Source: Candidatus Eiseniibacteriota bacterium | GTDB lineage: Bacteria; Eisenbacteria; RBG-16-71-46; CAIMUX01; VGJL01 | DNA length: 64,000 nt | Reading direction: 5' to 3' | NCBI GenBank assembly: GCA_963792585.1 | Contig: CAWBWI010000002.1 | Coordinates: 320,001 to 384,000, forward strand | Shown here: piece by piece, positions 845 to 39,370 of the stretch | Numbering within the stretch: position 1 is the first letter of the stretch | How the letters are laid out: every line of letters starts with the position of its first letter | The notes under the pieces: generated by a model | Database searches by the model: none | What the model saw: the letters and a program-made list of their open reading frames with translations, nothing else | What the model was told of the DNA's origin: nothing | Position numbers and translations under genes: made by a program

Positions 845-887
845 CTAACCCGATACGTCCGGCCATGAGCCGGGCGAGGGGGATGTG

Positions 888-1634: not shown

Positions 1635-1638
1635 GGCC

Positions 1639-2301: not shown

Positions 2302-2358
2302 GACTGAATCGAACACTCCTCCCGGGTCGGCCGCACCGGGCGGGGGGAGGTAAGGGAC

Positions 2359-3141
2359 GTGTCGAAGGGTTTGTTGATCGATGTCACCAAGTGCATCGGC
2401 TGCGGTTCTTGCAACGATGCCTGCCAGAAGGCCAACGACCTGCCGGACTCGCCGGACGGGGAGCTTTCCGACAAGAGATACACAGTCGTGCAGGAGGTGC
2501 AGGTATCGAAGGCCGAGCCGCACTACATCAGGCGGCTCTGCATGCACTGCCAGCATCCGACGTGTGAGTCGGTCTGCCCGGTGGGCGCCTTCAAGAAGAC
2601 TGCGGAAGGGCCCGTCCTCTACGAGGCGGGGAAGTGCATGGGCTGCCGATACTGCATGATGGCATGCCCCTACGGGGTGCCGCGGTACGAGTGGGCATCG
2701 ACGAACCCGCGGGTGCGCAAGTGCATCATGTGCGCGCCGCGGTTGAGGCAGGGACTGCCCACTGCATGCGCGGAGGCGTGTCCCACGGGCGCCACGATGT
2801 TCGGTGACCGGGATGAGCTGCTCCAGGAAGCCCACAATCGCGTCCGCGAGCAGCCCGACCTGTACGTCCAGTCGATCTTCGGCGAGGACGAAGGGGGTGG
2901 AACCTCGGTCCTCATCTTGGCGGACGTCCCCTTCACGGAGCTGGGCTTGCCGGGGAATCTCCCGAATCATCCGATGGGTGAGTTCACCGAAGCGGTACTT
3001 ACCAAGTTGCCAAGCGTGGTGGTGGTGGGTGGGAGTCTCCTCTCGGGCCTCTACTGGATCATCAATCGGAGGATGACGCTCGCAGAGGAGCGACGTGCCG
3101 GTGGCGCGGGTCGGTTCGCCGGTGAGGAGGCAAGGCGATGA
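2359..3141 (+). CDS. 4Fe-4S dicluster protein, HybA/HmcB/NrfC family
   Basis: CIGCGSCNDAC, CMHCQHPTCESVCP, CMGCRYCMMACP, KCIMC..PTACAEACP; C-terminal TM helix. Confidence 0.92.
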   Translation: MSKGLLIDVTKCIGCGSCNDACQKANDLPDSPDGELSDKRYTVVQEVQVSKAEPHYIRRLCMHCQHPTCESVCPVGAFKKTAEGPVLYEAGKCMGCRYCMMACPYGVPRYEWASTNPRVRKCIMCAPRLRQGLPTACAEACPTGATMFGDRDELLQEAHNRVREQPDLYVQSIFGEDEGGGTSVLILADVPFTELGLPGNLPNHPMGEFTEAVLTKLPSVVVVGGSLLSGLYWIINRRMTLAEERRAGGAGRFAGEEARR

Positions 3142-4355: not shown

Positions 4356-5932
4356 CGGCCGCGGTCGCCGTCGTTCTCGGTCTGTTCGGGGTTTGGGCGG
4401 TTCGCGAGAGCCGCTCACACCTCGAACAGAGCGTTATCGACAGCGCCGACCGGGTCTGCGACCTGATCCGTCGCAGCACCCGGTCCTTCATGTTCCGGAA
4501 CGAGCGGCGGGAGGTCTTCGAGATCATCCAGGCGATCGGCGAACAGCCCAATTTCGACCGGATCCGCATCTACGACAAGGAAGGTCAGATCCAGTACTCG
4601 ACCGTGGCGAGCGAGGTTGCTACCCGCGCCGACACCACCGCTGAGGCCTGCATCAACTGCCACCGTGGCCACGCCCCAAAACCGACGATCGACCGCAATG
4701 AACGCTACCGGATCTTCCGCAATCCAGACGGCCATCGCACGCTTGGCGTGATTGCGCCGATCGAGAACGAGCCGGCCTGCTCGAACGCCGAGTGTCACGT
4801 CCACCCGCCGGGACAGAGGATCTTGGGGGTGCTTGACACGCAGATGTCCCTTGCGGACATCGACCGCCAGATGGCAGCCCTGACCATCCAGATGACGGTC
4901 TCCACGATTCTGGCGCTGATCGGGCTGTTGGCCCTCTTCTCGTTGATCCTCTATCGCCTTGTTCACAGGCCGGTCCGGCGCCTGATCCAGGGGACGAAAC
5001 GAATCGCGTCGGGTGATCTGTCCGGCCGCGTCCCTGTTCGGTCCCAGGACGAGATCCGGGAGTTGGCGCAGTCGTTCAACCAGATGACGGACGATCTGTC
5101 CCAGGCTCGTACCGAGCTGCAATCCTGGGCGCGGACCCTCGAGCAACGGGTCGAAGAGAAGACGCGGGCGCTCGAGAAGGTTCAGGAGGAGATCCTCCAG
5201 ATGGAGCGGATGGCCTCGATGGGCAAGCTCGCCGCCATCGTCGCCCACGAGATCAACAATCCTCTCGCCGGGATCCGGACCTACGCCCACCTGCTCGTCA
5301 AGAAGGCGCGTCGTCGTTTGGAGTCCGACTCCGCCAGCGCGGAACGGGATCGCGAGTCGGTGGAGATGCTGACGCAGATCGAGGAGGAGTCGGCGCGCTG
5401 CGGCGAGATCGTCAAGAACCTGCTTCAATTCTCGCGTCCATCGCGCACGCGGACGGAGCCGGTCGATGTCAATCAGCTCGCAGCCGGGTCCGTCCGCCTG
5501 GTGCAGCACCAGATCGATCTGCAGGGACTCACCAGCCGCCTGGAGTTGACGGAGAAGCTGGAGCCGATCGTCTGTGACGCTCAGCAGCTCCGTCAGGCGA
5601 TGGTCGCGGTGCTGATCAATGCGTGCGAGGCCATGGGCAACGAGGGGGTCCTCACCGTCCGCACCGCGCCGGCGCCGGGTGGCGGAGTGGAGATCGCGGT
5701 GAACGACACGGGAGTCGGGATTGATGAGGAGACGCGTAAGCACCTCTTCGAGCCGTTCTACACGACGAAGGAGAAGGGAGCCGGACTGGGGCTCGCGGTT
5801 GTCTATGGGATCGTCAGGAGTCACGGCGGCAGGATCGAGGTCGAATCGTCCCCGGGAAGGGGAACGACGATGAGGATCTTCCTGCCCGCGAAACCCCCGG
5901 CCCGCGAGCCGGAAGCGGAGATGGTTGGATGA
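4307..5932 (+). CDS. Sensor histidine kinase (periplasmic heme-motif domain, HAMP, HisKA, HATPase)
   Basis: Two TM helices around CINCH and CSNAECH; HAMP DEIRELAQSFNQM; AHEINNPL H-box; DTGVGI, FEPFYTTK, GAGLGL. Confidence 0.93.
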   Translation: MGIPARGLAFRLSLYLAAAVAVVLGLFGVWAVRESRSHLEQSVIDSADRVCDLIRRSTRSFMFRNERREVFEIIQAIGEQPNFDRIRIYDKEGQIQYSTVASEVATRADTTAEACINCHRGHAPKPTIDRNERYRIFRNPDGHRTLGVIAPIENEPACSNAECHVHPPGQRILGVLDTQMSLADIDRQMAALTIQMTVSTILALIGLLALFSLILYRLVHRPVRRLIQGTKRIASGDLSGRVPVRSQDEIRELAQSFNQMTDDLSQARTELQSWARTLEQRVEEKTRALEKVQEEILQMERMASMGKLAAIVAHEINNPLAGIRTYAHLLVKKARRRLESDSASAERDRESVEMLTQIEEESARCGEIVKNLLQFSRPSRTRTEPVDVNQLAAGSVRLVQHQIDLQGLTSRLELTEKLEPIVCDAQQLRQAMVAVLINACEAMGNEGVLTVRTAPAPGGGVEIAVNDTGVGIDEETRKHLFEPFYTTKEKGAGLGLAVVYGIVRSHGGRIEVESSPGRGTTMRIFLPAKPPAREPEAEMVG

Positions 5933-7282
5933 GTGGAGAATCCGAATCCTGATCGTTGATGACGAACCGATCGTGCGCAGTTCGCTGGAGCACTGGTTCG
6001 CCGAGGAGGGATGCGTCGTGGACACCGCGGCGAGCGGGAAGGAGGCTCTCACCAAGCTGGCGGAAGCGTGAGTGGGACATCTTCCTGCTGGACATCCGGA
6101 TGCCGGGGATGGACGGCCTCGAGCTGCAGGCGCGCATCCGCGAGTCCCACCCCGACGCGATCATCATCATCATGACGGCCTACGCATCGGTCGAGACGGC
6201 CGTGCAGGCGATGAAGCAGGGAGCGCACGATTACATCACGAAGCCGTTCGATCCCGAGTCGCTCGAGCGGATGGTTCGCTCCGCCGTCGGATCGACGGCG
6301 GCTGCAGAAGGAGAACCTCCAGCTCAAGCGCAGCCTCGACGAGACTGGAGCAGTTCTCCGAAGATCGTCGGAGCGTCCCCCGCGATCCGACAGGTCCACG
6401 AGATGATCCAGACCGTCGCGGCGACCGACGCGACGGTCCTGATCCGCGGCGAGAGCGGCACCGGGCAAGGAACTCGTCGCCCGTGCGATCCACGCGCACA
6501 GCGCACCGGCGCTACATGCCGATCGTCGTCGTCAACTGCGGCGCCCTGCCGGAAGGGGTTCTCGAGAGCGAGCTCTTCGGCCATGAGAAGGGGGCGTTCA
6601 CCGGGGCGCAGTATCGTCGCAAGGGGAAGTTCGAGCTCGCCGACGGCGGGACGCTTTTCCTCGACGAGATCGGCGATGTGAGTTTGAAGACGCAGATGGA
6701 CATGTTGCGCGTTCTCGAGGAGAAGGCGATCTACCGGGTCGGGGGGAACTCGCGAATCGCGGTCGACTTCCGAGTGATTGCGGCCACGAACCGCGATCTG
6801 GAACTGGCGGTCGCCGACAAGAGCTTCCGCGAGGACCTCTATTACCGGCTGAACGTATTCACGATCCGCATCCCCCCGCTGCGGGAGCGCCGCGAGGACA
6901 TCCCTGTGCTCGCTAACCATTTCCTCCACAAGCTCGTGCAGGAGCATGAATCGCGCGATCGACGGCTTCTCTCCGGAAGCGATGAGGGTCGCTGACGGGC
7001 CGCGACTGGCCCGGCAACGTGCGGGAGCTTCAGAACGCCATCGAGACGGGCGGCGGTCGTCCGGGCGCAGGGGCTGATCGAGCCCGAGGACTTTCCGTTC
7101 ACCGAGCACGCGAACGCCGATGAGGAACCGAATGGCAAGAGCCTTGCCGAGCTCGAGAAGATCCACATCGCCAAGGTCCTGCGAGGACCGGGTGGAACAT
7201 CAGCCAGGCGGCCCGGCTCCTGGAGATCGATCGCGTGACTCTGTACAACAAGATGCGCAAGTACGGGATCGAGAGGCCGTAG
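5925..7282 (+). CDS. Sigma54-dependent response regulator (NtrC family), split by several frameshifts
   Basis: [59 protein letters not shown] and a C-terminal HTH ([11 protein letters not shown]) spread over different frames; TTG start inferred. Confidence 0.85.
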
Positions 7283-8446: not shown

Positions 8447-8750
8447 CACACCCGATCGGCAGGGTGCGTCATCGAGAGGCGCCCGCGGCGGAGTTCCGGG
8501 CGGGCTTCCCGAAGTCGTCCCCGGACTCTCACTCAGTGTCCGGAAATAAGTAAGATTGTCTAATAATTAGCATTGTCTTGTTTTAGGTAATATTGTTCCC
8601 GGATACCTCTAGAATCTCATGACAGATGGCTGCAGAGCTTGCCAGACACACAGAATGGATGAGGTTTCAGTGGGGAGTACGCATCCCGGTTCCCGCAAGC
8701 AGACACCGATCCACGGTCAGACGGACTCTGATGCCCCAAGGCGGAGCCAT

Positions 8751-11709
8751 GTGTCCCGATCGACCCCCTTCACCCTTCTCGTCTACCTAGCATTCTTTGC
8801 ATCCGGTGCCGCGAGTCTGACAGCGGAGGTGACGTGGAATCGGATGCTGATCGTGGTCGTGGGCAACTCGATCAGCGCGGCAGCCTTGATCATCGTGGTT
8901 TTCATGGGGGGGTTGGGTCTCGGTAGCCACATCGGGGGGAGGGTCCTGGGCCTCCGGCGTCCATCGCTCGTCCCCTACCTGCTCCTGGAAGCGGCTATCG
9001 GGGCCTACGTCGTTCTTTTCCCCGCCATCTTTGGCGTTCTGTCGGATGTCTTCACTTCAACGGCTCACAGCGTGGCGAACCGAACCGCTCTGAGCTTGAT
9101 CCGGCTGATCGTGACAATGGCAGCCCTGGTGATCCCGGCCGTCCTGATGGGCGCGACGTTTCCTGCGATGATCAACGGATCTGCGCCCGAGAAGCCGGGA
9201 CGCGGCGGCGCGCGCATCGGCTATCTGTACAGCGTGAACACCCTGGGCGCCGCGACCGGCTGCTTCGCGGCCGGTTACCACCTCCTGCTCGAGTTCGGGG
9301 TCCAGACAGCCCTGTATTGCGCCCTGGGCCTCTACATCTTCGCCGCCTCCTGCGCGCTGTTAGCCAATGCCCTCCGTTCCCGCGGAGCTGGCGATCGGCC
9401 TGCCGTTCCTGCAGGCGCCATCGACCCTCCGGCTGACGACCGCGGCCTTCGGCGCTTTCTCTATGGGGCCACCTTTGGCATCGGCTTCGTCTCCTTGGCC
9501 TACGAGGTGCTACTGACCCGGTTGAGCATCTTGTACCTCGGCAACAGCGTCTCCGTGTTTCCGCTCGTCCTGACAGCCTTTCTGCTTGGGACCGGAATCA
9601 GCGCGGTTGCAGGGACCTGGTTGTACGGGCGGCTTCAGCGGGGGGGTGGTGGGGCGAATTGGCTCTTCGGCGTCACGGCGTTGCTTGCGGGCGTGTTCGT
9701 CCTCTTCACGCCTCGGCTGCTCCTGGGCAGCGTCAGCGCCGAGCGTTTTACCCGGCTCGCGGATGCCGCCCCAGGCAGCCCCTGGCCGATCCTGGGGATC
9801 ATCGTTCTCCCCACTTTCTTCATCGGAGGGTTGTTGCCGGTGGCCATCCGAATGCTCCGGGGGAGGGAGCAGGGCCGGGCGACCCGCGGAGCGGCGTCCC
9901 TCTACGCCTTGAATACCGCGGGCGGGCTGCTCGGGGCTGGGATCGCCAACCACTTCTTGGTCCCGTCGATTGGAGTCCACGGCGTCCTCCTTCTGCTTGC
10001 GGCGATTTGCCTCGCCACGGGGTTCGTGCAGCTGTGTTCGCCGGGGCGAAGCGCCCTTCGGTGGGTCACGGTCGGTGGCGGCATCGCCCTCGTGACGGTG
10101 GCCCTCTGGGCAGGTCTTCCCAGGATGGAGGACCTCTATGCGCGCAAGGTCGTGCAGTCCACGGGCGCGGAGTCCGCGCAGGCTCTGCTCGTTCGGGAGG
10201 GTCGCGCAGCGACCGTGACCGTGATCGATCAGACGGATGCTCGACTGGGAAGCTATCGTGACATGTATCTGAACGGCGTTGAGGAGGCCTCCACGCGGTA
10301 CTGGCACACCCAGCTCTTCAAGCTGCTCGGTGTTCTTCCCGTACTCACGCACGAGTCCGACCGGCCCAAAGACGCGCTGGTCATCGCCTTCGGAGCCGGA
10401 ATCACAGCCGGCTCCGTGCTCGCCTCCGACGAGGTCGCGTCCCTCGACGTGGTAGACCTCAACCCGGACATCGAGGGCATCAACGGCTTCTTCACCGAGG
10501 TCAACGGCGACGTCTTCCATCAGCCGCGGTTCCACTTCTGCAATGACGACGGCCGGAACTACCTCGTCACGAGCGGCAAGGAATACGACCTGATCATCGG
10601 CGACTCCACACATCCGAGGGCCTATGACAGTTGGATCCTGTACACGGACGAATTCTACCGTGCGGTGCGGAAGCGGCTGCGCCCGGACGGAGTCTTCGCT
10701 CAGTGGGTGCCCGTACTCGGATCGATGCAGGGCGACCTGTTCCGCATCCACCTGAATACGTTTCGCCGGTCCTTCCCCCATTCGACCCTCTGGTACGTGT
10801 ACGGTTCCGACCAGGCATTCCTCATGGCGACTCCACAGGGGTATCTCCCTGGATACGGGCGGCATCCAGAAGAAACTGGACGCCCTGCCGGCCTGGTTCC
10901 AGGCCGACAAGTATCAGATCGATTCTGTCGCCCGGGTGGCCGGGTTCTTCTGGCTGGATGACGAAGCGATGCAGAGGATGATCGGGGATGAGACCCGCAT
11001 CAATCGCGACGGAGCCCATTATTTCGACAAGCAATCGACCGTGGTGCCGTCCCCTCCCCAGCGGCGACTGCCGGCGTACCAGACGAGCATCCTTCCTCAC
11101 CTGATCGGACCGGGAGACGAGTTGCGGGTGGCGGTGGGCGGCCAGCAGGCCGTGGCCCAGCTTCTCGCACGCTACGGGTTCTACCGGAGCCAGGAGGATC
11201 TGTATAGCGCGTACTGCCTCATGCCGGATAACGGGAACGTGCGCTATTTCATGGATCGCGAGTTTTCCGAGCGACTCCCTGATTGGAAGGATTTCTGCAG
11301 GGAGCGAGAGATCGTCCAGTTCCGCGCCGCCGTCGCGCATCTGCCGAACGATGCGCTCGCCCTGAATGCGCTCGCCGACCGACTGATCGAGGCTGGGAAC
11401 CTGGAGGAGGCCATGCCGCTGATTGAACGCGCCGTGGCGCTGGATCCCGAAAACGGAATGATCCTCGATACGTATGGTTGGGGGCTCCTCCAGCGTGGCG
11501 AGAGCCGGAAGGCGCTCGGGGTGATGCGGAAATCGGCTTCCGTACTGCCGACGCACCCCATCGTTCTCTACCATCTCGGCGCAGCCTATCGAGCCAACGG
11601 GGATGCGCGATCCGCAAGGAAGTACATCGAAGCGGCTCTGAACAGCGGGAGCGGCTTCGCGGGGGCGGAAGCGGAACAGGCTCGGCGGCTGCTTCAGGAG
11701 ATCGATTGA
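8751..11709 (+). CDS. Fused membrane domain/spermidine synthase-like methyltransferase with C-terminal TPR; one frameshift near 10841
   Basis: FASGAASLTAEVTWNR, LMGATFP, LYSVNTLGA TM repeats; SAM-type IAFGAGITAG..VVDL, DDGRNY, YDLIIGD; TPR with DTYGW; 2959 bp = 3n+1. Confidence 0.85.
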
Positions 11710-13916
11710 GCCGGCGATTCCGATCGGCGTGCGGTTCGTCCCGCGGTTTCCGAGGCCGAGGGCAACGGCTTGCTCGGTGCGGAGCTTTGTCGATCGCGCT
11801 CCTCTGCTGGTTGCCGGCCTCACGCGCCCTCGCGATCGACGGTGTCGTCGACATTCGCACCACCAGTCAGGAAGGTCGCGCGGGCGCCGATAAGTACACT
11901 CAGAGGTCGACGACATCTCAACTGAGGGCGAACCAGCACGTATCCTTCATGCGACACTTCGGTCTTCGATTCGACGGCGGCCTTACTCGGGAGACGTTCC
12001 GAAGCAGATTCGGACTCACTCGCAGCGATTTCAACAAACGAACGGGCACAGGCGGACTCTCCCTGGATCTCACGGGAAGGGGCGGACGCCTGATGCTGGA
12101 CGGCCAGACCTTCGATCAGAAGACGGACGGGAACGAAACGGACAGCCCGAGCCTGCGGCGGAATCAACTCAATGGTGCGGCGCAATTCAGGCACGACTGG
12201 ATCGAACTGGGCAGCGGCGGCTCATTCATCTCCTCGCGACGCGTGAGCGAATCCGCAGGGGCGCAGCGAAACGAGGAGTGGACCGGCACGATCTCGTCGC
12301 GATTGAAGATCCCCAAACTCGGGGAGGCGCGGTACAAGTTCGCGTCCTTGACGGGCCGTGACCTGAATCTCCACACAAGAGTGGATCAGACCACTCACAC
12401 GGTCAATTTCTCCAGCGCGACCCGATTCGCGGGGGGGCGTGGATACATCTCGACAAAGGAGACCTCGAGCTTCTTTACCCAGACGCAGACGCGGCCGGCC
12501 GCAGGGTCGGGAATGCGCCTGATGCTGCCCGACGCCGGAGGCTACCTCCTCGACGACACCCCGGACCTGCACGACCCACTGGAGATGGATCTCGTGTCCG
12601 TTCCCGAGCTCTATGACGGGAATCGGCAGACCTCCACCGATGTCCAGATCGGGGATTCCGCGCCGGCGGTCCGGCAGTTCGGCGGCGACTACCGGAACAT
12701 CGTGTTCGATTTCGGAGATGCGGCCGATGTGGAGTCCATCACCATCTACATCGACAAGACCCTTCCTGTCCCTGGGATGATCCAGTGGAGAGTATTCACC
12801 AGCAACGACCCGGATGGCCGCATCTGGGAGGAGTCGACAAGCGCCCAATTCGCCTACGCGGAGTGGGGCGTCGGTCTCCAGGGATGGACGGCGACCTTCC
12901 CCCAGGACGCGGCCGCGCGGTTCATCAAGGTCGTCGATGTGAAACTGGGACCGACCGTTGCGGACCTCTCGATGACGGAGCTGGAGGTGTTCTCACGGGG
13001 CGAGGACGCGAAACGGGAGCGATCCGAAACGGTGAACCATCGATTGGGGCTGTCGATGGAATACAAACTCACCCCCGGCCTTCGCGCGGGGTACGATCTC
13101 ACCTATCGGCGCCGGACCTTGACCGGGGGAATCGGCGCCCTGCAGAGCCAGGGGCACGGTCTAACGGCAAGCTGGACGAAGAGCATCTGGTCCGTATCGG
13201 GGCGCCATGAGATCCGCAGAACGGACGGCCAGCGATCGCGAGATGCAAACGTCAACGCTCAGAGCCTCACGGTGAAGCGGGGTCGGGACGGCGCTCTTGT
13301 GTCGACGCTGTCCTGGTCCAGGGTCGATGACAGGAGCGGTGAGAACGACAAGCTGTCGAACAGCATCTCCCTGGGCTACTCACTCCCCGCCGCTCCCTCC
13401 CTGCGAATCGACCAGAGGATCACGACCGGCCGGTTGCTCGATTACGCAGCGGACAGGACCTCGACGTCGCTCACCGCCGTGACCTCGATCACCGGCGCAC
13501 CGGTGCCGAGCATCACCCTGGATTTGCAGCAGAGTGAACGCTGGGTCTCACAGGAGGCGGGCACCGGCTTTTCTCGTTTCGATGACACTTCTTTGACCTT
13601 AGGATGGCGACCGGTGCCGCTGATCGTGCTCCAGAGCGCGATCCGCTACCAATTGCGGGACCGTGGGGATTGGCTGGTCCAGAGTTCAGCGACCTGGGAG
13701 CCGCTCTCGGAGGGGACCCTGAGCATGGGTCTGAGCGCGAACCACCTGCGGGACACACGTGCCAACGAGACACAGCGTGGGGGAGGCGTCCACCTGGAGT
13801 GGCGTCTCCGGCCGAACTTGACGCTGCAGGGCAATCTGGAAGCAGTGGGGCTGAAAAAGGCCAACCAGCACGACTCCCCGCTGAATACGGATCTCAGGGG
13901 AATCTTGCGGTTCTAG
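11706..13916 (+). CDS. Outer-membrane beta-barrel protein with an inserted discoidin-like domain
   Basis: Signal peptide (..SRALA); alternating amphipathic beta strands; terminal Phe (GILRF); central FDFG..WRVFTSND..ARFIKVV..TELEVF segment; start uncertain. Confidence 0.7.
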   Translation: MSRRFRSACGSSRGFRGRGQRLARCGALSIALLCWLPASRALAIDGVVDIRTTSQEGRAGADKYTQRSTTSQLRANQHVSFMRHFGLRFDGGLTRETFRSRFGLTRSDFNKRTGTGGLSLDLTGRGGRLMLDGQTFDQKTDGNETDSPSLRRNQLNGAAQFRHDWIELGSGGSFISSRRVSESAGAQRNEEWTGTISSRLKIPKLGEARYKFASLTGRDLNLHTRVDQTTHTVNFSSATRFAGGRGYISTKETSSFFTQTQTRPAAGSGMRLMLPDAGGYLLDDTPDLHDPLEMDLVSVPELYDGNRQTSTDVQIGDSAPAVRQFGGDYRNIVFDFGDAADVESITIYIDKTLPVPGMIQWRVFTSNDPDGRIWEESTSAQFAYAEWGVGLQGWTATFPQDAAARFIKVVDVKLGPTVADLSMTELEVFSRGEDAKRERSETVNHRLGLSMEYKLTPGLRAGYDLTYRRRTLTGGIGALQSQGHGLTASWTKSIWSVSGRHEIRRTDGQRSRDANVNAQSLTVKRGRDGALVSTLSWSRVDDRSGENDKLSNSISLGYSLPAAPSLRIDQRITTGRLLDYAADRTSTSLTAVTSITGAPVPSITLDLQQSERWVSQEAGTGFSRFDDTSLTLGWRPVPLIVLQSAIRYQLRDRGDWLVQSSATWEPLSEGTLSMGLSANHLRDTRANETQRGGGVHLEWRLRPNLTLQGNLEAVGLKKANQHDSPLNTDLRGILRF

Positions 13917-13964
13917 GACGATGGATCGAAGGCGTCGATGAGGGTTCGGAAAGGGAAGGACGGA

Positions 13965-14543
13965 ATGCGAGGTCGCCGGGTTAGAAACTTGCTGGAACCT
14001 GCCGGCATCTTGATGCTCCTGCCGCTGCTTGCGGGATGTGCCGGGAGCGATGCCTTCATCCAGCCGAATGTCGATTTCAGCCACATTCACCGCTGCGCCA
14101 TCCTGCCGTTCCAGAATCTCACGAACGACGGCTTCGCGGATGAACGACTGGAATCGATCTTCCTGATGGAGGTGCTCCAAGACGGCTCCCTTGCGATTGT
14201 CGATCCCGAGGAAACTGTGAGCGCGATGAATGCGCAACACGTGACCCCCGGCGTCGCCCCGACCCCCGAGCAGATCATCTCGCTTGGAAAGACTCTATCG
14301 GTCGACGCGGTCTTCCTGGGCAGCGTCGAGGAATACGGGCTACAGAGCCAATCACGCCAGCAGACCTATGGGGTCACGGCCGTGTTCAGCATGGCGGAGA
14401 CCGAAACGGGGAACCTGATCTGGAGATCTCAGATCCATGTCGACGGATCGTCGATCTGGAAGCGGATCTTCGGCGGCGAATCGGCGAGCCTCTATGACAT
14501 CTCGAAGACTGCAGTGCGTCGAGCCCTGGCGGACCTCCTTTGA
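13965..14543 (+). CDS. Lipoprotein, CsgG/DUF799-like fold
   Basis: Lipobox LLAGC; AILPFQNLT, LGKTLSVDAVFLGSVEEY, ETETGNLIW. Confidence 0.8.
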   Translation: MRGRRVRNLLEPAGILMLLPLLAGCAGSDAFIQPNVDFSHIHRCAILPFQNLTNDGFADERLESIFLMEVLQDGSLAIVDPEETVSAMNAQHVTPGVAPTPEQIISLGKTLSVDAVFLGSVEEYGLQSQSRQQTYGVTAVFSMAETETGNLIWRSQIHVDGSSIWKRIFGGESASLYDISKTAVRRALADLL

Positions 14544-15619
14544 GCCGTTGGTCATTCGGATCTTGGGTGTTCCCGGCTCTGGCCGTTGCCCTATTCGTCG
14601 AGATGTCGGTTCCCATGTACGCGGCGGCGCAGGAGTCCGGATCGGGCTCGCGCGTCGCCGTGATCCTATTCCTCTCCTACGAGGCTGTGGGCCAGCCCCC
14701 CCCGGATCTCGGGAACCTACAGGGGGAGTGCTGGGATCGCCTCGCGACCGGGGTGCACGAGCTGGGGCACAGCGAGGTCTCCCGATCCGAGATCGGGCCC
14801 TCCGTACGGCGCTGGGCAGTCCGGACGGATCTGAGCGTGAGCGGGGCGTTTCTCGAAGAGATCGCAACGGAACTGGACGCAGGCGTCCTTCTCGTCTGCA
14901 ATCTCACGATCTATGGGGACCGGCTGCTCCTGTGCGGACGCAGCGTGGTGACGGCCACGGGCAAGATCACATGGGCGGACATCCAGGAGCTGCGACTCCC
15001 TCCGGGGTCCGGATCCGGGCAAGACAGCCTCGAATCCCGATGGCGCGATCTGGCCACAAGCGCGTCGCACCGACTGCTCGGCAGCTGGGATGCCTATGTC
15101 TCGCCCGATGATTTCTCTGGAGATCTCTTTGTCGTGCCAGTCAGGACTGTCGGCATGGAACTGATGGCGGGACGTCTGGTCCAATCCTGCCTTCTCCGGT
15201 CCCTGATGAGGTCGCGTTGGCGCATCGAGGAGCCGGGCGTCACCTTCTCGCGGCTCCAGGAGGCCGGGGTGGATCCACGTCGACTCGATCGGACCTCCCG
15301 CCCCGCCCTGATCGCCGCGGGCGTCCACGGTGCGGTTCTCGTGTGCGATCTCGTGGCCGGCGATAACGCATCACCTGCCAGGACGGCGCCGTCCCCGGAA
15401 GGAAGCAGTCCCGTGCAGCCCCAGTCGACCTTCCCGCCGTCCACGCTCTCCATGAGGCTCCTGAATGTCGAAACCGGGGTCGTGGTGTTCGCCGCCACCG
15501 AGTGGCTCGAGATGCGGCAATCATATGGTCTCTTCGGAACACTCAAAGACGCGTCGCCCATGAGGCGTGTCCAGCCGGTGGCCGACCGGTTGGTGCGCGC
15601 GGCGACACGGAAAGGATAG
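14540..15619 (+). CDS. Secreted protein, possibly two tandem CsgG/TolB-N-like domains
   Basis: Signal peptide; two repeats ending VVTATGKITWA and LLNVETGVVVFA; overlaps upstream stop. Confidence 0.6.
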   Translation: MSRWSFGSWVFPALAVALFVEMSVPMYAAAQESGSGSRVAVILFLSYEAVGQPPPDLGNLQGECWDRLATGVHELGHSEVSRSEIGPSVRRWAVRTDLSVSGAFLEEIATELDAGVLLVCNLTIYGDRLLLCGRSVVTATGKITWADIQELRLPPGSGSGQDSLESRWRDLATSASHRLLGSWDAYVSPDDFSGDLFVVPVRTVGMELMAGRLVQSCLLRSLMRSRWRIEEPGVTFSRLQEAGVDPRRLDRTSRPALIAAGVHGAVLVCDLVAGDNASPARTAPSPEGSSPVQPQSTFPPSTLSMRLLNVETGVVVFAATEWLEMRQSYGLFGTLKDASPMRRVQPVADRLVRAATRKG

Positions 15620-15629
15620 GACCTTCCCG

Positions 15630-17318
15630 ATGTCACGAACTGCCGGCATGCTTTTGCCGCTCCTTGCGCTGGTTCTGGGTACTGCACCGCTTCCCACTGC
15701 AAGCGCATCTGGCGTGGCAGGGGGAACACGCCGGTTGGCCACGGTCGGTTCCGACACGCTGACCATCGCCGACTTGGACACCGAGGTCCTGGCCTCGCTC
15801 TCGAAGGCAAAGCAGCAGATTCTGCCGGATCTGAATCCGGAAGATGTTCTGAGACGGCTGATCCAGAACAGGCTCTTGGAGCAAGAGGGCTATCGGATCG
15901 GCGCCGATCAGGCTCCCGCCGTGCGCAACCAGGTTCACGAGCTCATTCGCCTGAAGAGCGTCACCGCGCTCCTCGATTCGATATCGGCTCCACCCGCGGG
16001 CATGGCCATGGCGAGCCCGGACAGCATGGTTGGTATGGCCGGCACGTTGCGGCGCTACTCGCACATTCTTGTCAAGGAGGAGGCGCTTGCAGGGTCCCTC
16101 CGGGACAGCGTCACGAACGGGGTCCCATTCGCGGATCTCGCCAGACGGCACTCCCTGGATGGAGCGGCCGCGGCCGGCGGGGATCTCGGCTATGCCGCGG
16201 AGGGCACTTACCTCGACGACTTCGAGAAGGCCGCCGGGCAACTCGCTCTCGATCAGATCAGCGGGCCGGTCCACACCCAGTTCGGCTGGCACCTGATCAA
16301 GTTGACCGGGAGCAAGGCGGATACTCTGAAGTCGAGGGCGATGGCCGAGGCGATCATCCAGGCGCGCGAGGGCGAAAGGCGCACCGCCGCCGTGGGGCGC
16401 TACGTCGATTCCTTGAAGACGGGCTACGGGGTGACGATCAACGACTCCCTTCTCGCGAGTCTCGACTACGCGTCGAAGGACCCGGTCGTGCAGAAACAGC
16501 TCCAGTCCAGCCAGGCGGTTCTCACAGTCCTCCCGACGGGGAAACTCACAGTCCGCGGGCTCACCAGGAATATCCGTTTCAAGTACTTCCACGGCCTCGA
16601 GGATCGGGACGACGCCCAAGCCATCCGGGATCAGATGTTTCACGAGTGGGTCACCGAGGCGCTCTTGAGCCACGAGGCGGAGAAGCTCGGCTTCGATCAC
16701 GAGCCGGGGATTCTCGCTGCCGCGCGTATGGAAGAGCGTGTCCGGATCCGCGAAGAGGTCTTGGACAGCATCTTACGGTTCGAGTTCAAGCCCTCCGAAG
16801 ACGAAGTCCGCGCCTACTACGCAGATCACATCAGTGAATTCGTGCCCGAACCGCGGGTGAAGGTGCAGAGCGTCCTCACCAAGGACGCCGAGACCGCCAA
16901 GAGGTTTCGCGATGAGATGGATCGGGGCGCGGGGCTCAAGTGGTTGGTCGATCGGTCGCCGGGCGAGGTCGACTCCGTCGCCCCTTTCCCCACGGGTTGG
17001 ATCGATGCGGATGCGATCGGTCTGAAGGTCCGGCAGCCGGTCAAGGGTACGGCGGTCGGCCCGATGGAGCTTCCAGGAGGCTGGGCTCTTGCCGAAATCC
17101 TCGCAGTGGAGCAGCCCGAACCGACCAAGTTCGATGACTGCAAGGACAAGGTTGTTCAGGCCATGAAAGGGCTTCGCGTTCGCCAGGCACTCCAGGACGC
17201 ACTGTCGCGTCTGGAGTCGGGGACCGAAATTCGAGTCGAACAGGGCGCAAAGGACGCGATCGCGGAACGAATCAAGCAGTTCCAGGATTCGCTATCGGAA
17301 GGAGGCGAGAGCAGATGA
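15630..17318 (+). CDS. PpiC/SurA-type peptidyl-prolyl isomerase
   Basis: SHILV..FADLARRHSLD..GGDLG..ISGPVHTQFGWHLIK rotamase signature plus a second degenerate domain; signal peptide. Confidence 0.9.
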   Translation: MSRTAGMLLPLLALVLGTAPLPTASASGVAGGTRRLATVGSDTLTIADLDTEVLASLSKAKQQILPDLNPEDVLRRLIQNRLLEQEGYRIGADQAPAVRNQVHELIRLKSVTALLDSISAPPAGMAMASPDSMVGMAGTLRRYSHILVKEEALAGSLRDSVTNGVPFADLARRHSLDGAAAAGGDLGYAAEGTYLDDFEKAAGQLALDQISGPVHTQFGWHLIKLTGSKADTLKSRAMAEAIIQAREGERRTAAVGRYVDSLKTGYGVTINDSLLASLDYASKDPVVQKQLQSSQAVLTVLPTGKLTVRGLTRNIRFKYFHGLEDRDDAQAIRDQMFHEWVTEALLSHEAEKLGFDHEPGILAAARMEERVRIREEVLDSILRFEFKPSEDEVRAYYADHISEFVPEPRVKVQSVLTKDAETAKRFRDEMDRGAGLKWLVDRSPGEVDSVAPFPTGWIDADAIGLKVRQPVKGTAVGPMELPGGWALAEILAVEQPEPTKFDDCKDKVVQAMKGLRVRQALQDALSRLESGTEIRVEQGAKDAIAERIKQFQDSLSEGGESR

Positions 17319-20300
17319 CCTGCGTGTACCGCATCCGGGCCTTGTTGCCGTTGGTCGCGGTCTCGATCCTGGTTGCGCTACTCGTACCCGCATCCGCTCT
17401 GTCATCGGATCGATTCAAGCAGAAGGAGTGCTTGGACTGCCATAAGGACATGTCCAAGCAGCTATCCGCCTCCAGTGCGCATGAGCCGTTCAAACGAAAG
17501 GAGTGCGAGAGCTGCCACAAGCCGCACGGAATCCTCGGTAAGTTGCTGCTGAAGGCGGAGGGCGCCGATCTTTGCACCCCCTGCCATCAGGGGATCGGCG
17601 CGGAGATGTCCGCCAAAGTGGTGCATGAGCCGCTAAAGGCCGGTGCCTGTACGACGTGCCACAACCCGCACGGCACGGGCAAGCGAGCGATGCTGACCGC
17701 TGACGGCGACAAGGCCTGCTTCGCATGTCATGACCAATCGTCCTTCGAGCGGCCGTACGTTCACGCGCCGCTGACGCAGGACGGGTGCCGGGCCTGTCAC
17801 TCGCCTCACGGCTCGGATCACGAGGGACTCCTGCTGCGAGATGCCCGTGAGCTGTGTATTTCCTGCCACAAGGCCGGATCCGAAGCTCCGCTCGAGCCAT
17901 GGGAATGTGGATGTGTCCACCGCAGATTGCGCCGGGTGCCACGATCCCCATAGCTCGACAAGCCCGAAGCTTCTGCGCGCCTCCGTCCACGCCCCGGTGG
18001 CCGGCCTGGAATGCGGTAATTGTCACACGATCGAGCCGTCGGGCAAGGCCACGCTTCTAGAGACGGGGCAATCGCTCTGTGAAACCTGCCATGACGTTCG
18101 CTCGGCGACGCCAAAGGTGGGCCATCCCCCGTTTGCCGAGGGAGCATGCACGGATTGTCATGCCGCCCACGGGAGCCCTTATCCAATGCTTCTGAAGCAG
18201 AGTGAGGAACAGCTCTGCTCCGGTTGCCACGACAAGGTGACGGCCGGGGCCGAGCACCCTCATCCTCCTGTGGCCGAGGGGAGATGCTCCGCGTGCCATG
18301 ACGCGCATGGGTCCGACCACCCTGCCATTCTCAAGGCGGAAGAGCAGGAACTCTGCTCCACCTGCCACTCGGACATGTCGCCGCAGTCGCACGCGAACCA
18401 ACAGACGCATGCGCCCTTCGTCAAGCAACCGTGCACGACCTGTCACGCCGCCCACGGATCGCGGCAGGCGTTTCTGCTGATCAAAGATCCCGGAGATCTA
18501 TGTCTATCCTGTCACAAGAGCATCCAGTTGCTCATGGCCTCATCCCATCCGCACACCGTGGTCGCGCAAGGAGAGTGTCTCTCCTGCCACGCCCCCCACT
18601 TCGCCGACAAGCCCGGGCTGCTGAAAGCTGAGAGCGGAGATCTCTGCGTGGGATGCCACAAGGGGCTCGCGGGCGAGCCCGGGGCGCCCGGCGTGCACTC
18701 CCCCGCGGCCGAGAAGGCGTGCCTGGACTGCCACGTCCCGCACGGGGGAGAGCAAGAGGCCCTTCTGAAGGCGCCGGTCAAACAGACTTGCGGGGACTGT
18801 CATGCGGATGTGAGTGATCCGTCCACCCGGCCCTACACGCACGCGCCCGTTGCCGATGGCAACTGCACAGAGTGCCATGACGCGCACCGTTCCGAACGCC
18901 CCGCGCTGCTCACGGCCGCGTCACCTGAGATCTGCCTGACCTGTCATTCGGATGTGATGCGGACCGACGGAGCGGTCTCGGTTCACTCTCCGAGCCAGGA
19001 TGACTGCCTGGTCTGCCATCAACCTCACGGCGGCAGCGATCCGACGTTCCTGCGCTCGGCTTCACCCGACCTGTGCCTGAAGTGCCATGATGAGGGCAAT
19101 CAGGAGTTCCGGCAGAAGCACCTCCAAATGGAGGGTCGGAAGATCGACTGCCTCCAGTGCCACGAAGGTCATCGGTCCGCAGAAGCCGGCCGTTCTTCAC
19201 GCCTACAGCCATCCTCCGTTCGATGATCGGACCTGCGACGTGTGTCATGCTGCCGACGGGTCCCCGATGCCTGCGAGCGAGACCTGCCTCAACTGCCATG
19301 GCGACCTCTCGGCGGCGAGCACGGGCGACAAGGTGCAACATCAACCATTCGCCTCCGGCGAGTGCACCGCATGCCACAATCCCCACGCCTCGAAGGCGGA
19401 GCACCTTCTTGCCGGGAGCGTCGGCCAGACATGTGAGTCCTGCCATGCGACCGCCGATCTCTATCCTGAACAGTCCCTGGCGCACACCCCTGTCCGGCAA
19501 GGCAGGTGCAATGACTGCCATTCCGGCCACAGCTCCAATCAAGCTGCCCTCCTGAAGCGCCCTGAGGGGCAACTCTGCACAGGCTGCCACGAGGACATTC
19601 GTGCCATCGTGGAGCAGGGAGTCGCTCACCAGCCAGTCTCCAAGGGCAAGTGCGATGCCTGCCATGATCCCCACGGCACGGCCCAGAGCGCGATGCTGAA
19701 GAACTCGGTGCCCGCTTTGTGCACAAGCTGCCACAATCCAAAGGAGGCGGCTCTTCTCGCCAGGCATGGCGGAATTCCCATGGAGGGGACCGATTGCCTC
19801 AGCTGCCACGATCCGCACAGGAACATCAAGAGCGCGAGGGCGACTGGGAGCGTCCACGCGCCGTTTGCCGGCGGGAGGTGCGGCGACTGCCACAAGGGGG
19901 CGACGACCGCGCTCCGTGCCACGGAGAAGACGCTCTGTCTCGGGTGTCACGCGGGCCTGGAGCAGGATCTCCTTCGCGACAAGACCCACAGTGCGCTCAA
20001 TGGTGACAAGCCGTGCACATCCTGCCACCGCCCTCATGCTTCTCCTGTGGCGAAACTGCTCGTCAAGCCCAACGAGTCCCTGTGCGCCTCCTGCCATCCT
20101 GATGAGGCCTCCGTGATCGCAAGTGCGGAGTACGCGCACCCCTCCCAGAACAAGGGCCGGTGCCTCGTGTGCCACCAGCCGCATACCCAGCCCCCGTCGG
20201 CGAGTTCGGGCGGGGGAGCGACCGAGGTCTGCTCCCAGTGTCATGACTTCACCAAGCATGTCAGCCACCCCATGGGGCCGGAGACGTTGGATCCCCGAAC

Positions 20301-20442
20301 CAAGCAGCCGGTGAAGTGCATTAGCTGCCATGCGCAGCATGGCTCCGGTTTCAAGTACTTCATGCGGGATGATCCATCGGGTCGCCTCTGTGTTCAGTGC
20401 CACACGGAGAAGATCCGGCAGGCCCGGCCACTAGGGAAGTAA
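17315..20442 (+). CDS. Very large multiheme cytochrome c (42 CxxCH), two +1 frameshifts near 17873 and 19190
   Basis: Signal peptide; 7+18+17 CxxCH motifs counted in three consecutive frames; repeating HxP..CxxCHxPH..LL..LCxxCH unit; 3128 bp = 3n+2 (~1041 aa). Confidence 0.88.
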
Positions 20443-20520
20443 CGGCCGGTCGCGGAATGTTCTGCATTGTCGATCGAGGGGGGCACGATCGCACCGGTCC
20501 GCCGAGCGGGGTGATCCCGA

Positions 20521-20912: not shown

Positions 20913-21002
20913 TCTGGGAGCCCTCCTCGGACAGGAGGACCCCTTGAGATGGCGAGCGCTATCGATGGGTTTTCGGGATGGCTGGAATCAGCGTTCGGGA
21001 TG

Positions 21003-22374
21003 GGTTGTGGTTCTTAGATTGGTGTTTGGTCGCACTGCCGGCAGGGCGGTGCTCCGTGGTGTGGCACGCCCTTGGCCTCTCCTTCGCCTCGTGTCCAGAC
21101 GACGTACATCCCTCCACCAGGTCCATGGGACCTGCCGCCCACCCCATTGCCCCAACTCCGCCTGCAATTTCTACACACCCCGTCCCGATTGGCGCCCGGC
21201 CTACGACGGTTTCTTCCGTCGGCCTTCCGACGGGCGCCTCTTCCAACGCTTCCGATGCCCCCATTGCGGCCGCCGATTCTCGTCTCGAACCTTCGCCGCT
21301 GACTACTGGCTCAAACACAGGAGTCTCTTCTGCGACATCGCCCGACTTTCTGCCGAAGGACCCGGTCTCCGTCAGATCGCGCGTCTCCTCGGCGTCTCCC
21401 ACACGACCGTCCTGCGCCACATCGCCCGTGCCGGCCGTCACTGCATGCTCTTCCACCGTCAGATGCTGGTCGAGTACCGGACCGCAGAGCCCATCGTCAT
21501 CGACGGATTCGAGTCCTTCGAGTTCTCCCAGTACTTTCCCTTTCACATCAACCTCGCCGTCGATGCCCGGAGTTGGTTCATCTTCCACTTCACCGACAGC
21601 CCATTGCGACGCAAGGGGACCATGAGACCCGAGCAACGGCTTCGCAGGGAGCATCTGGAAGCCCAACTGGGCCGCCCCGATCCCAAGGCGATCGAGAAAG
21701 GCGTCTTCGACCTACTCCGGTCCGTTCTGGAGGATCCATCCTCGAGGAGCGACAGGGAGCAACTCATCCACAGCGATGACCATCCCGCCTATCGCCGCGC
21801 GCTCCTTCGCCTCCGCAGACTTCCGGAGTTCCCACAAGTGCGGCATCAGATCACTCCGTCGACCGAGCGTCGAACCACGCGCAATCCGCTCTTCCCCGTC
21901 AACCTGACCGACCTGCTCCTTCGACATGGTCAGGCCAACCACCGCCGGGAGACCATCGCATTCAGCAAGCGGCGGCAGGCGGCGATCGAGCGGCTGGCGA
22001 TTTTCACGGTGTGGCGCAATGCCATCAAGAGCCGGAGAGAGAAGGCACCGGGGGAGACCGCTGCCATGGCCGTTGGGATCCTATCGAGGCCTTTGAGGTG
22101 GGCAGAGGTCTTTGCGGATCGGACATTCCCCAGGAAAGAAGTCCTACCCGGGCCCTGGTGGTCCTACTACTGGAGGCGGGTCCGAACGGTGGCGCTGGGT
22201 CCAAGTCAAAGGGGACACCAGCTCAAGTATGCATTCTGAGAAGAACTGGAGTGGTTCGGCACGGGCGAAGCCGGACCACTCTCCGCTCAACTTCCTGTCA
22301 CGGTCGTTTCCGCAAGAGCCGAAGGGGTGGCCGTTGCTTCGTCAACTGCATCCACCAATCTCCGCACCACAACC
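21003..22374 (+). mobile_element. IS1-like insertion sequence, 1372 bp, 9-bp target duplication
   Basis: Terminal IRs GGTTGTGGTTCTTAGATTGGTG / GGTTGTGGTGCGGAGATTGGTG; TTCGGGATG at 20994-21002 and 22375-22383. Confidence 0.88.
21061..22239 (+). CDS. Transposase (Zn-ribbon, HTH, DDE-like)
   Basis: CPNSAC..QRFRCPHCGRRFS; GLRQIARLLGVSHTTV; DGFE, SDDHPAY, HRRETIAFSK; start uncertain. Confidence 0.8.
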   Translation: MARPWPLLRLVSRRRTSLHQVHGTCRPPHCPNSACNFYTPRPDWRPAYDGFFRRPSDGRLFQRFRCPHCGRRFSSRTFAADYWLKHRSLFCDIARLSAEGPGLRQIARLLGVSHTTVLRHIARAGRHCMLFHRQMLVEYRTAEPIVIDGFESFEFSQYFPFHINLAVDARSWFIFHFTDSPLRRKGTMRPEQRLRREHLEAQLGRPDPKAIEKGVFDLLRSVLEDPSSRSDREQLIHSDDHPAYRRALLRLRRLPEFPQVRHQITPSTERRTTRNPLFPVNLTDLLLRHGQANHRRETIAFSKRRQAAIERLAIFTVWRNAIKSRREKAPGETAAMAVGILSRPLRWAEVFADRTFPRKEVLPGPWWSYYWRRVRTVALGPSQRGHQLKYAF

Positions 22375-22608
22375 TTCGGGATGCCCGGAATCGGTGTTCG
22401 GGATGTCCGGAATCACCGTTCGGCATGCCCGGAATCTGCGTTCGGGATGGTCCGGAATCCCCAGAGGGAGATGGCCGAGTGTAGGACCTTCCGCTCGAAC
22501 TCCGCCGTAGATCGTTGACGCCCGGCCTCGGTCAATGCATCGTTTCCGTTTCCAGAGGGAAACTCACAGGTCCGAACGCCGCGACCGCACCCTTGCCGAC
22601 AACCGAGT

Positions 22609-22706: not shown

Positions 22707-23811
22707 CTACGGGTTTGGGTTGCCCTCGTCTCCGAGGTCCTTCGCGTGGCACTTGTTGCAGAGCGACCTCTGATTGTGGACGAAGGTGTACTGATAGTAC
22801 TTGTTCGTTGCGTCGTTGGCGCCGACTCCGCCGTCCGTGGACTTCGGGTGGGATTCGGACATGAAGTCCGTGTCGAAGTCCCAGCGGCCGACGTCGTCGA
22901 ACGCCGAGGCGTGGGCCCTGTGGCAGCTGACGCACATGACTTGATCGACGCCCGTCGGACCGGTCGTGTAGTTCGTGGCGTCGACGGTCTCGAGGTCGAC
23001 GTTGACGGCCTCGAACGGAACCAGACCCCAGTATGCCGTCGACACATCGCCGCCAGTGGGATCGTCCGTGCTGACGTACGCATTGTAGTTGGCCGCGATC
23101 GTCGATCCCATGTCGCCCTCGGGATGGACGAAGTTGTTCGTGTTGTCCGAGTGGAAGTTCGCGTGGCAGTTTGCGCACCATTCGGACATTCCGTTCTTGT
23201 AGACCGTGTGCTCGGCGTTGGTCTCGTTCCCGCCGCCACCCACCATCGTCCGCCGGGAGTTGCCCTTGGCGAGAGGCTGATCGCTCGCGAAGTCGTAGCG
23301 CGTGCCGTCATAGACCGGTCCGAATTCACTGCCGTACAGGAGGCGGAAAGCGGTCGTTTCCGTGCGGATCGTGGCAGCTGGTGCAGGACAGCCTGGACGA
23401 GAGGAAGTCGCCGCCGGGTGCGTGGGTCAGGGTGGCGTCCGCGGCCAGGTCGTTGGCCGGCGAGATGATGTTGTGACCGTGGCTGTCGCCGGTGCTGGTC
23501 TTGGTGCCGTGTTCATTCCACGTGTAGGTCTTGGTCAGCCAGTAGAAGTCGCCGCCGGGCCCGTAGCCGGCACCGCCGTAGAACTGCCCGTAGGCGGCAT
23601 GGCAGTTGAGACACGTGTCGCTGCTGTTGCCGTACTTCAGCAGGTACGCATGACCCTCGGGGTGGTTAGGGTCGACGGGCTGGCCGTTCTGGCTGTTGTG
23701 CATGGTATGGCATCCCTGGCAATAGGCCACGCCCCCGTCGTGGAAGGCGCTGGCGGAGCCGGCGTAGAATGCCAGCATCAGCAGTGCCAGGAACAAACCG
23801 AAGAACCTCAT
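22707..23811 (-). CDS. omcS: OmcS-family hexaheme cytochrome c (nanowire-type), one +1 frameshift near 23350
   Basis: Signal peptide then FHDGGVAYCQGCHTMHNS; CLNCH; PGGDFYWLTKTYTW; GHNI; APGG..CTSCHDPHG; GMSEWCANCH; CVSCHRAHAS; QRSLCNKCHAKD; GGAGG RBS; 1105 bp = 3n+1. Confidence 0.92.
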
Positions 23812-23880
23812 TAGTAACCTCCATTTCGCAGGACCTGATCGATCAGTGACGGAGATCTGTCTTGCACTCTCGCTGCGTTT

Positions 23881-24895
23881 CTACGGACTCGGTTGCGCCG
23901 CGACCACCCCCTCCCTCCCGGAACGGATCTCCCGTTCCACCTTGCCGGCGACAACCGGCCGGAAACGATCGTTGTTGGGTTCTGCCGACCCAGTGGTTGT
24001 GAATCGAAGCTGCTGGATTCTGCCTTCAAGCCCCTGGGCAACGTAGATCAGTCCGTCGGACGAGGAAGCGATGGCCGCCGGATAGTAGAGGTCTTGTGGA
24101 CCCTTGCCGAACGTCCCGAATTCCGAAACGAACCCGAAGTGCTCGTCATAGAGCAGAATGACGTGTCTCATCCGGTCCAGCACGGCGATCGACCCATCCG
24201 GGCAGAAGGCCACGCCGACTGGAAAACCGAGACGCCCCCTGGCTCCGCCCGGCGTGCCGAACTCCATCTCATGCTCCCCTTCGGCGGACAGGACCTGGAT
24301 CTGCCGAAGCCCAGGGAAGGGCAGCAGTAGTCCGTCCGTCGGGGGCCTCCCCGGGTTTGCCGAGTGCGATCAGCTCTCCGGATGGAGAGTCCTTCAGGTC
24401 GCGCTTCCAGAGAAGAACCCCGGTCTCCGCATCGTGCTTTGCGAGATATCCGTTCGTAGGATCCGTCGTCACGTAGTCGCCATCACGGGTCACCAGCAGG
24501 TGCTCCGGTGTCCACAGATCCGTTACCGGTTCGGGAGCAAATGGGAGCAGCTGGCCGAAGAAATCCAGCTTGCGAATCGTCCGGCCGCCCGCCGGCCTGC
24601 TATCCGTGCAGACGAATCCGCCAGACGCTTCAACGCAGATGTCGAGAGGGTCGGCAAGCCCTGCGGCCTGCTCGGTGCTGAATAGATGCACGTTTCCTCT
24701 GTCGAGCAGGTGCCCTGCGTTGCCCGTCGCGTCCGTCACGCAGACGATGCCGTCGGTCCCGACCGTCACGGAAACGGGGAGCGCGATCCGGGAACCTTCA
24801 CACGGAAGGCTCAGCGTGGAGCTGTACTCAAGACTGGGAGTCGCCTGAGCGCTCACCAGGGCACACCATGCGAACGTGCCGTAGAGCACCGCCAT
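23881..24895 (-). CDS. NHL-repeat beta-propeller protein, one frameshift near 24331
   Basis: Signal peptide; PVSVTVGTDGIVCVTD, FPVGVAFCPDGSIAVLD, FGTFGKGPQDLYYPAAIA repeats. Confidence 0.82.
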
Positions 24896-39116: not shown

Positions 39117-39370
39117 GCGTCGGGGTCTGGCTCGAGATCCGCCAAATCCCCCATCTGCTGGAGGTAGCGGAACACCTCTTCCGCCTCTCTCTCATCGATG
39201 GTGCTCAGCGCGACCCCGACGTGAACCAGTACGTAATCCCCGACCTTCGCCTCCGGCACGCAGCCGAGGTGGACCGTCTTGGTGATCCCGCCGAAGCTGA
39301 CCTTTCCGGTCCGAAGTAGGGGATCATCGCCCTGGAGACTTTCGATCCTTCCCGGAACCGCCAAACACAT
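39113..39370 (-). CDS. hypC: Hydrogenase chaperone HypC
   Basis: [17 protein letters not shown]. Confidence 0.96.

Follow-up and report, generated by a model that had tools for sequence, protein, structure and literature searches.

Between positions 17315 and 20442 of the forward strand, a 64,000-nucleotide stretch from a Candidatus Eiseniibacteriota bacterium (GenBank assembly GCA_963792585.1, contig CAWBWI010000002.1, positions 320,001 to 384,000; hereafter the window) presents three overlapping open reading frames (ORFs) filled with CxxCH haem-binding motifs. Are these three cytochromes or one, and what might such a protein do? An initial annotation, made from the letters alone, had proposed a single cytochrome of about 1040 amino acids (aa) with 42 haem motifs, hidden by two frameshifts and possibly equivalent to a fusion of two adjacent large cytochromes of a Geobacter cluster.

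The pair of 26- and 16-haem cytochromes and its cluster are already known. GSU2495 and GSU2494 carry 26 and 16 haem sites, respectively (PMC3495685), and were named oscI and oscJ (PMC13194489). No publication on a fused 42-haem form was found in the literature searched, whose scope left aside the primary osc paper (Shen et al. 2025) and parts of the supplement of Murali 2023; by word search, the main texts of PMC5539420 and PMC10553843, as far as available, hold no mention of a fused pair. Among multihaem chains of solved structure the largest carries 16 haems, and chains with more than 100 motifs are known from genome mining (bioRxiv 2025.05.29.656830), so 42 is not a record.

Reconstruction of the reading frame

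CxxCH motifs were counted in a six-frame scan. Between 17429 and 20389, three successive forward frames held 7 (ORF 17315-17953, motifs at 17429-17855), 18 (ORF 17841-19226, motifs at 17928-19149) and 17 motifs (ORF 19087-20442, motifs at 19234-20389). Shuffled DNA of the same region contained a mean of 0.055 and a maximum of 1 motif (200 base shuffles). After deletion of bases 17872 and 19179, the frames joined into one chain of 1,041 aa with 42 motifs and no internal stop, exactly as had been claimed; the computed 24.8 aa per haem agreed with the estimate of about one haem per 25 aa. Over its length the joined protein was 66-67% identical to P0001, the intact orthologue from genome G003. The initial annotation had located the surplus bases near 17873 and 19190. 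The first position stood (17872-17874), and the second was moved about 11 bases to the left (19177-19179).

A leader had been assigned to the first segment only. By a hydropathy scan, not a signal-peptide predictor, the best 15-residue value before the first motif was 3.02 in this segment versus 0.66 and 0.22 in the other two, which upheld the assignment.

Origin of the two extra bases

Sites were compared with contigs from 8 of 21 listed runs, which represent close relatives (about 94-99%), not source reads. A contig was counted as spanning when it covered at least 31 letters on both sides of a site. The extra base was missing in all spanning contigs, that is in five of the eight runs at site 1 and in seven at site 2 (X1 spanned neither site; X2 and X19 did not span site 1). 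Over 17000-20499, a single X4 contig showed 202 substitutions and gaps at exactly the two extra-base sites. RNA contigs X11 and X19 also cover the gene; reading them as expression was rejected, because the flanks are covered too and DNA is possibly included.

The assembly comprises 5.4 Mb in 7 contigs and is 84% complete. Frameshift-aware alignment of 31 housekeeping genes (about 26 kb) detected 60 frameshifts, 51 of them +1, in 11 of the genes (rpoB 24, rpoC 12, fusA 6); a control genome pair yielded 1 in 10.9 kb. The rpoBC/ribosomal-protein region (G000:C3:1189065-1220461) has about one frameshift per 430 bases, 85% of them insertions. In so error-rich an assembly two shifts in 3.1 kb are unremarkable, and split ORFs anywhere in the host genome are therefore untrustworthy. 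Three neighbours in the cluster are broken likewise; for two of these the extra base is absent in relatives, and the third is uncovered by contigs. The one in the OmcS-like gene (at about 23352-23355) is absent in X9, X11 and X19.

On the relatives' contigs and this error rate, both extra bases are very probably assembly errors. Frameshifts that are real in the source strain, in a gene recently inactivated, would be improbable: the compared contigs are those of relatives and an insertion sequence (IS) lies just downstream of the cytochrome gene, but rpoB, rpoC, fusA and secY, which cannot be pseudogenes, are broken in the same assembly, the joined frame has no in-frame stops, and the neighbouring shifts at 23355 and 24331 are likewise missing in relatives. 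Programmed ribosomal frameshifting, with 7-, 25- and 42-haem products, would fit two +1 junctions with smooth read-through and yet seems hardly credible, given that relatives do not have the extra bases and that other broken copies shift elsewhere (G025 after haems 1, 7 and 24, all -1; G046 after haem 6), with no site kept across relatives. Both explanations were rejected on the relatives' contigs, the assembly-wide shift rate and the non-conserved shift sites. As such, the frameshifts are ordinary artefacts. The near-identical contigs, the error rate and at least 94 full-length homologues with 42 motifs together bear out the proposal of a single gene.

Haem modules and predicted axial ligands

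Ligands were predicted from an alignment of 94 full-length sequences, in which all 42 motifs were invariant. Exactly 42 non-motif His columns were conserved, 40 of them at 99% or more and two at 86-88%; the half with haems 1-26 has 26 of these distal His and the half with haems 27-42 has 16. Conserved Met was confined to the start and one 54% column. Since each half has its own distal ligands, the pattern is consistent with bis-His ligation throughout and with halves that work as separate proteins; all 42 haems are thus predicted to be bis-His and presumably low-potential.

Three nine-haem modules of the chain (haems 1-9, 18-26 and 27-35) are paralogous; a linker of eight haems and an end of seven complete it. 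The junction between haems 26 and 27 measures 17 aa and is similar to the internal junctions 9-10 and 35-36, which hints that the haem array may have arisen within one gene; the tree described below is unrooted.

Correspondence with OscI and OscJ

Locus L092 of genome G392, which encodes a protein identical to solved OmcS (407/407) followed by osc genes, was used as the Geobacter reference, also for the OscE, OscF and OscH values in Table 1. Identity to OscI was 32-33% over residues 1-644 of the window protein and identity to OscJ was 35%, in register. OscI scored best when placed at haem 1 and OscJ when placed at haem 27. As the modules are paralogous, the margin for OscJ was small (629 at haem 27 versus 606 at haem 1). 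With 26 plus 16 haem sites and all 42 motifs in register, the suggested equivalence to a fusion of the two Geobacter cytochromes was supported.

Both loci share the order barrel, lipoprotein, secreted protein, peptidyl-prolyl isomerase (PPIase), 26 haems, 16 haems, and both have OmcS-family, NHL and spermidine-synthase-like genes nearby. Unlike Geobacter, which has two genes, the window encodes one polypeptide with one leader. It also differs in having one omcS-like gene, in the gaps at OscD and OscG described below, and in its host lineage, which, judging by relatives' homologues, appears to group with Ca. Eisenbacteria records and not with Desulfobacterota.

Table 1. Features of the cytochrome gene and its surroundings in the window.
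Feature	Coordinates	Strand	Basis
42-CxxCH doubled-CXXCH cytochrome c gene, OscI-OscJ / OetB-OetA fused form; seen as three ORFs	17315..20442	+	frame joining; G003 orthologue
Signal peptide (predicted, Sec/SPI) with basic n-region and hydrophobic core, ending in A-S-A; lipobox absent	17315..17398	+	sequence; hydropathy 3.02
Half equivalent to OscI (GSU2495), haems 1-26 in modules 1-9, 10-17 and 18-26, with 26 conserved distal His	17429..19248	+	alignment to L092 OscI
First extra base (+1), following haem 7; probable assembly error	17872..17874	+	absent in contigs X4, X8, X5, X9, X11
Second extra base (+1), following haem 25; probable assembly error	19177..19179	+	absent in contigs X2, X4, X8, X5, X9, X11, X19
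Half equivalent to OscJ (GSU2494), haems 27-42 in modules 27-35 and 36-42, with 16 conserved distal His	19285..20442	+	alignment to L092 OscJ
GSU2502-like membrane protein, spermidine-synthase-like with TPR; a single +1 shift near 10845	8619..11709	+	sequence matches
Outer-membrane beta-barrel, OscE/OetI homologue; mature part from about 11835	11478..13916	+	24% identity, E 8e-30
Lipoprotein (LAGC lipobox), OscF (GSU2498) homologue	13938..14543	+	30% identity, E 1.3e-30
Secreted protein, OscG position	14540..15619	+	position; BLASTP E 0.22
PpiC-type PPIase, OscH (GSU2496) homologue	15567..17318	+	Pfam Rotamase; 25% identity, E 1.5e-27
Insertion sequence, 22-nt inverted ends	21003..22375	+	3 more genome copies at >=98.8% identity
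OmcS/OscC-like hexahaem cytochrome, +1 error at about 23352-23355; inverted vs G003	22707..23868	-	77% identical to G003 orthologue
NHL-repeat beta-propeller, split by +1 error at 24331	23881..24870	-	sequence; relatives' contigs

Fused and split forms of the family

A match was present in 38 of 61 genomes searched. At 18 loci of relatives, a single 42-motif ORF was found 11 times and a 26(25)+16 pair with two leaders 3 times; 2 loci were frameshifted at other places and 2 were cut by contig ends. Homologues were further counted in two protein searches (best 120 matches of each). Among the matches listed, 94 of 101 proteins of at least 950 aa had exactly 42 motifs, and 45 of 49 proteins of 600-800 aa had 26. 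Source labels of the long forms included Zixibacteria, Krumholzibacteria, Latescibacterota, Gemmatimonadaceae and Eisenbacteria. Many homologues elsewhere consist of two genes, each with its own leader, which is half of what the initial annotation had named as refuting a single gene; they are the split form of the same family and do not concern this locus. All 42 motifs were in register in 110 of 110 fused proteins and in 39 of 42 split sets. Matches were also obtained in 58 of 301 genomes from the phylum of G061 and in 90 of 401 from the class of G291. The 38 loci inspected there (L055-L088 and L093-L096) showed 26 and then 16 motifs; they include one duplicate, one locus with 15 and one cut at 14.

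A tree was computed from 45 of 152 rows by a quick search under LG+G4, with composition warnings on 27 rows, and was left unrooted. L027, L031, L034, L038, L046 and L088 were omitted as cut or frameshifted, and one duplicate was dropped. The fused protein P0039 nested among split Desulfobacterota-type pairs (support 99). A single fused clade was rejected with P0039 (p-AU 2e-47) and not rejected without it (p 0.32), and the tree requires at least two changes between the fused and split states. By its placement P0039 is a re-fusion among the split forms. That the fusion arose repeatedly was considered and rejected, as only this one extra event is supported; the unrooted tree gives no direction of change.

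P0113, an apparent PPIase-OscI fusion, was considered as a sign of a periplasmic N-terminus and rejected on account of a full leader and an out-of-frame-looking sequence at its junction. Four related long cytochromes, P0094, P0098, P0144 and P0046 (three with 38 motifs, one with 52), have a different module spacing and may be separate families that share this building unit. The fused 42-haem loci also include a second sub-lineage (L027, L029-L037, L042 and L044), which has a divergent hexahaem cytochrome with a 6- or 9-haem partner; neither a PPIase nor an OscE-like match was detected in the fetched stretches of these loci.

Predicted structures

The intact G003 orthologue (66% identical) was modelled with AlphaFold2 as a regular repeat, with a predicted local distance difference test score (pLDDT) of 86.3. 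In Foldseek, the only significant PDB match of this model was MtrA (E 3e-6), which was the best match of the 42-haem protein in both structure and sequence. The ten haems of MtrA span 80 A inside a 26-strand barrel (PMC7198977; PDB 6R2Q). Extrapolation of this pitch (80 A/10 haems) to 41 steps would give a chain of about 36 nm, if straight. The periplasm-spanning wire of the initial annotation is plausible on this MtrA-like model, with length and location deduced. For the window barrel, about 28 strands and an inserted beta domain were predicted (pLDDT 80.7), and the highest template modelling (TM) score among the listed matches was that of MtrB (6r2q_B, 0.41).

With MtrA/DmsE the window protein shares the doubled-CXXCH, predicted bis-His chain: it matches PF09699, with 42 conserved distal His, and passes TIGR03508 by summed repeats. 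As in MtrAB(C), a plug-less barrel resembling MtrB is encoded next to it. It differs from MtrA/DmsE in having 42 haems instead of 10, and the barrel differs from MtrB in its 7% identity and inserted domain. No MtrC homologue was seen in the window cluster.

Gene neighbourhood

The product of 14540..15619 occupies the position of OscG, with no detectable similarity by BLASTP. The orthologue of the OmcS-like protein in G003 matches OmcS 6ef8 (E 5.6e-56); its identity to OmcS, OmcT and OscC is 35-37%. The IS gave weak IS1/ISL3 transposase matches, occurs in four near-identical copies in the genome and lies within a 22-nt repeat family (20965-22449). An invertible switch for the omcS-like gene was considered and rejected: no matching inverted arms flank the inverted block, and relatives share the join to the glucokinase side. 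The spermidine-synthase-like gene accompanies the cluster here and in L092 (14059-17166; 27% identity).

Further upstream, positions 885-6992 (+) encode two GcvH-like proteins, a 4Fe-4S protein and an NrfD membrane subunit (the Fe-S and NrfD gene pair lies at 2359-4352), a sigma-54 activator and a histidine kinase with one CxxCH (4649). These genes are a possible inner-membrane partner module. Elsewhere in the genome, at G000:C6:583247-588752 and C6:879840-889293, there are further large multihaem ORFs, with 30 and 15 motifs and, in one cluster, with 9, 13 and 11. The window also contains hypCDE genes (36942-39532) and encodes a PEP-CTERM protein (39614-40240). Genes of the HEPN, GmrSD-like and Mutator transposase types at 46953-56026 suggest a defence island.

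Proposed function and topology

The probable reading, favoured with some reserve and built on sequence and model comparisons, is that one gene fuses OscI and OscJ and that its product is a Sec-exported periplasmic wire which docks at the barrel and exchanges electrons with the OmcS-like protein. The protein would be exported by Sec and its leader cleaved, haems would be attached by the cytochrome c maturation genes of the host (four Cytochrom_C_asm genes are present in the genome), and folding would be aided by the adjacent PPIase. An MtrA-like repeat fold would then provide a continuous haem wire across the periplasm, with one end docked at the roughly 28-strand barrel. Electrons would be exchanged with inner-membrane carriers below and with the OmcS-like protein outside.

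Several points weigh against this reading. The GSU2494 mutant is listed with a wild-type phenotype (table of PMC9248073 citing Aklujkar 2013), and oscJ is itself frameshifted in G392 (L092:2190-3530; a +1 shift leaving 10+6 haems); a frameshift of oscJ between strains, at position 868, is also reported (PMC13194489). If the lesion in G392 were real, the finding that the mutant resembles the wild type would be weakened. The YVTN beta-propeller OscD was not found with the query used in this 84%-complete genome, which gave two short weak matches elsewhere, and the omcS-like gene, which together with the NHL gene lies beyond the IS in an orientation opposite to that in G003, is no longer co-directional. 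The predicted template modelling score of the G003 orthologue model is only 0.56, and the likeness of the barrel to MtrB is modest (7% identity at the TM score given above, with TonB-dependent receptors first by E-value). Periplasmic location is deduced, straightness is assumed, length is extrapolated from MtrA, and the choice between assembly error and strain-specific damage leans on contigs of relatives.

The location of the chain bears on a published question. OetABI, the 26+16-haem four-gene core of sulfate reducers that partner anaerobic methanotrophic archaea (ANME), has the same cytochrome pair, PPIase, beta-propeller and outer-membrane barrel (PMC5539420; PMC10553843). Both cytochromes were placed in the periplasm by Skennerton 2017 (PMC5539420), whereas in the model of Murali 2023 (PMC10553843) OetB is an extracellular-facing lipoprotein and OetA is periplasmic. 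OetB is likely the 26-haem protein, judging by gene order in the supplement of Murali 2023 and by lipobox counts: a lipobox-like Cys was present in 36 of 43 split 26-haem proteins versus 1 of 43 16-haem ones. Unlike the Oet pair, the fused chain joins the proposed extracellular lipoprotein and the periplasmic protein in one molecule. Such a Cys was missing in 81 of 90 fused proteins checked, and about 5 of the 9 flagged look real on inspection. For a single chain, mostly without a lipobox, two arrangements are left: both halves on the same side of the outer membrane, or passage of the chain through the barrel.

Threading, with the first 26 haems (N-terminal) outside and the other 16 (C-terminal) inside, would preserve the topology of Murali 2023, in line with the probable identity of OetB and with a barrel predicted to be larger than MtrB (about 28 versus 26 strands). 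It is nevertheless quite unlikely: the scarcity of lipobox-like Cys in fused proteins speaks against it, as do the periplasmic placement of both cytochromes by Skennerton 2017 and the MtrAB structure, in which MtrB, constricted to about 15 A on its outer side, traps MtrA, whose N-terminus is periplasmic (PMC7198977). A different role was also weighed, in which the 42-haem protein would serve mainly as an accessory of OmcS-filament assembly or as an electron store and not as the main respiratory wire; it would keep subunits reduced during secretion or buffer charge. The neighbours are reported as folding and secretion factors (OscH, OscEFG; PMC13194489), which together with the silent loss of GSU2494 lends this some appeal, but the exact count of 42 kept across distant phyla and the self-contained 26+16 ligand sets suggest a fixed span, not a capacity, and at some 26+16 loci (e.g. 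L094-L096) the fetched stretch holds no OmcS-like match. An accessory or storage role is therefore regarded as unlikely, and a periplasmic wire docked at the barrel as the better account.

Significance

The questions addressed are the route of electrons across the periplasm to OmcS-type filaments and the roles of OscI and OscJ. A natural fusion with a near-invariant count of 42 haems settles in which order and orientation the two proteins follow each other, with haem 26 beside haem 27. Its most useful consequence is the challenge to the published model, in which the outer membrane separates the two halves. For the tractable Geobacter, it predicts that a fused oscI-oscJ should complement the pair. 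OmcS-like genes in Krumholzibacteria have been published already (PMC7914226); the conduit is now extended to records labelled Eisenbacteria, Zixibacteria, Krumholzibacteria, Latescibacterota and Gemmatimonadaceae. Tentatively, and at greater risk, these elements may be joined: a single-molecule wire of fixed length (about 35 nm) would bridge the whole periplasm, from inner-membrane quinol enzymes to the barrel, by which an OmcS-type filament would be exported or charged. Geobacter OscI and OscJ may have split from this form. The two would dock head-to-tail, both on one side of the outer membrane, which would correct the arrangement with OetB outside and OetA inside, and the conduit would be widely used by uncultured FCB-related phyla without diffusing shuttles.

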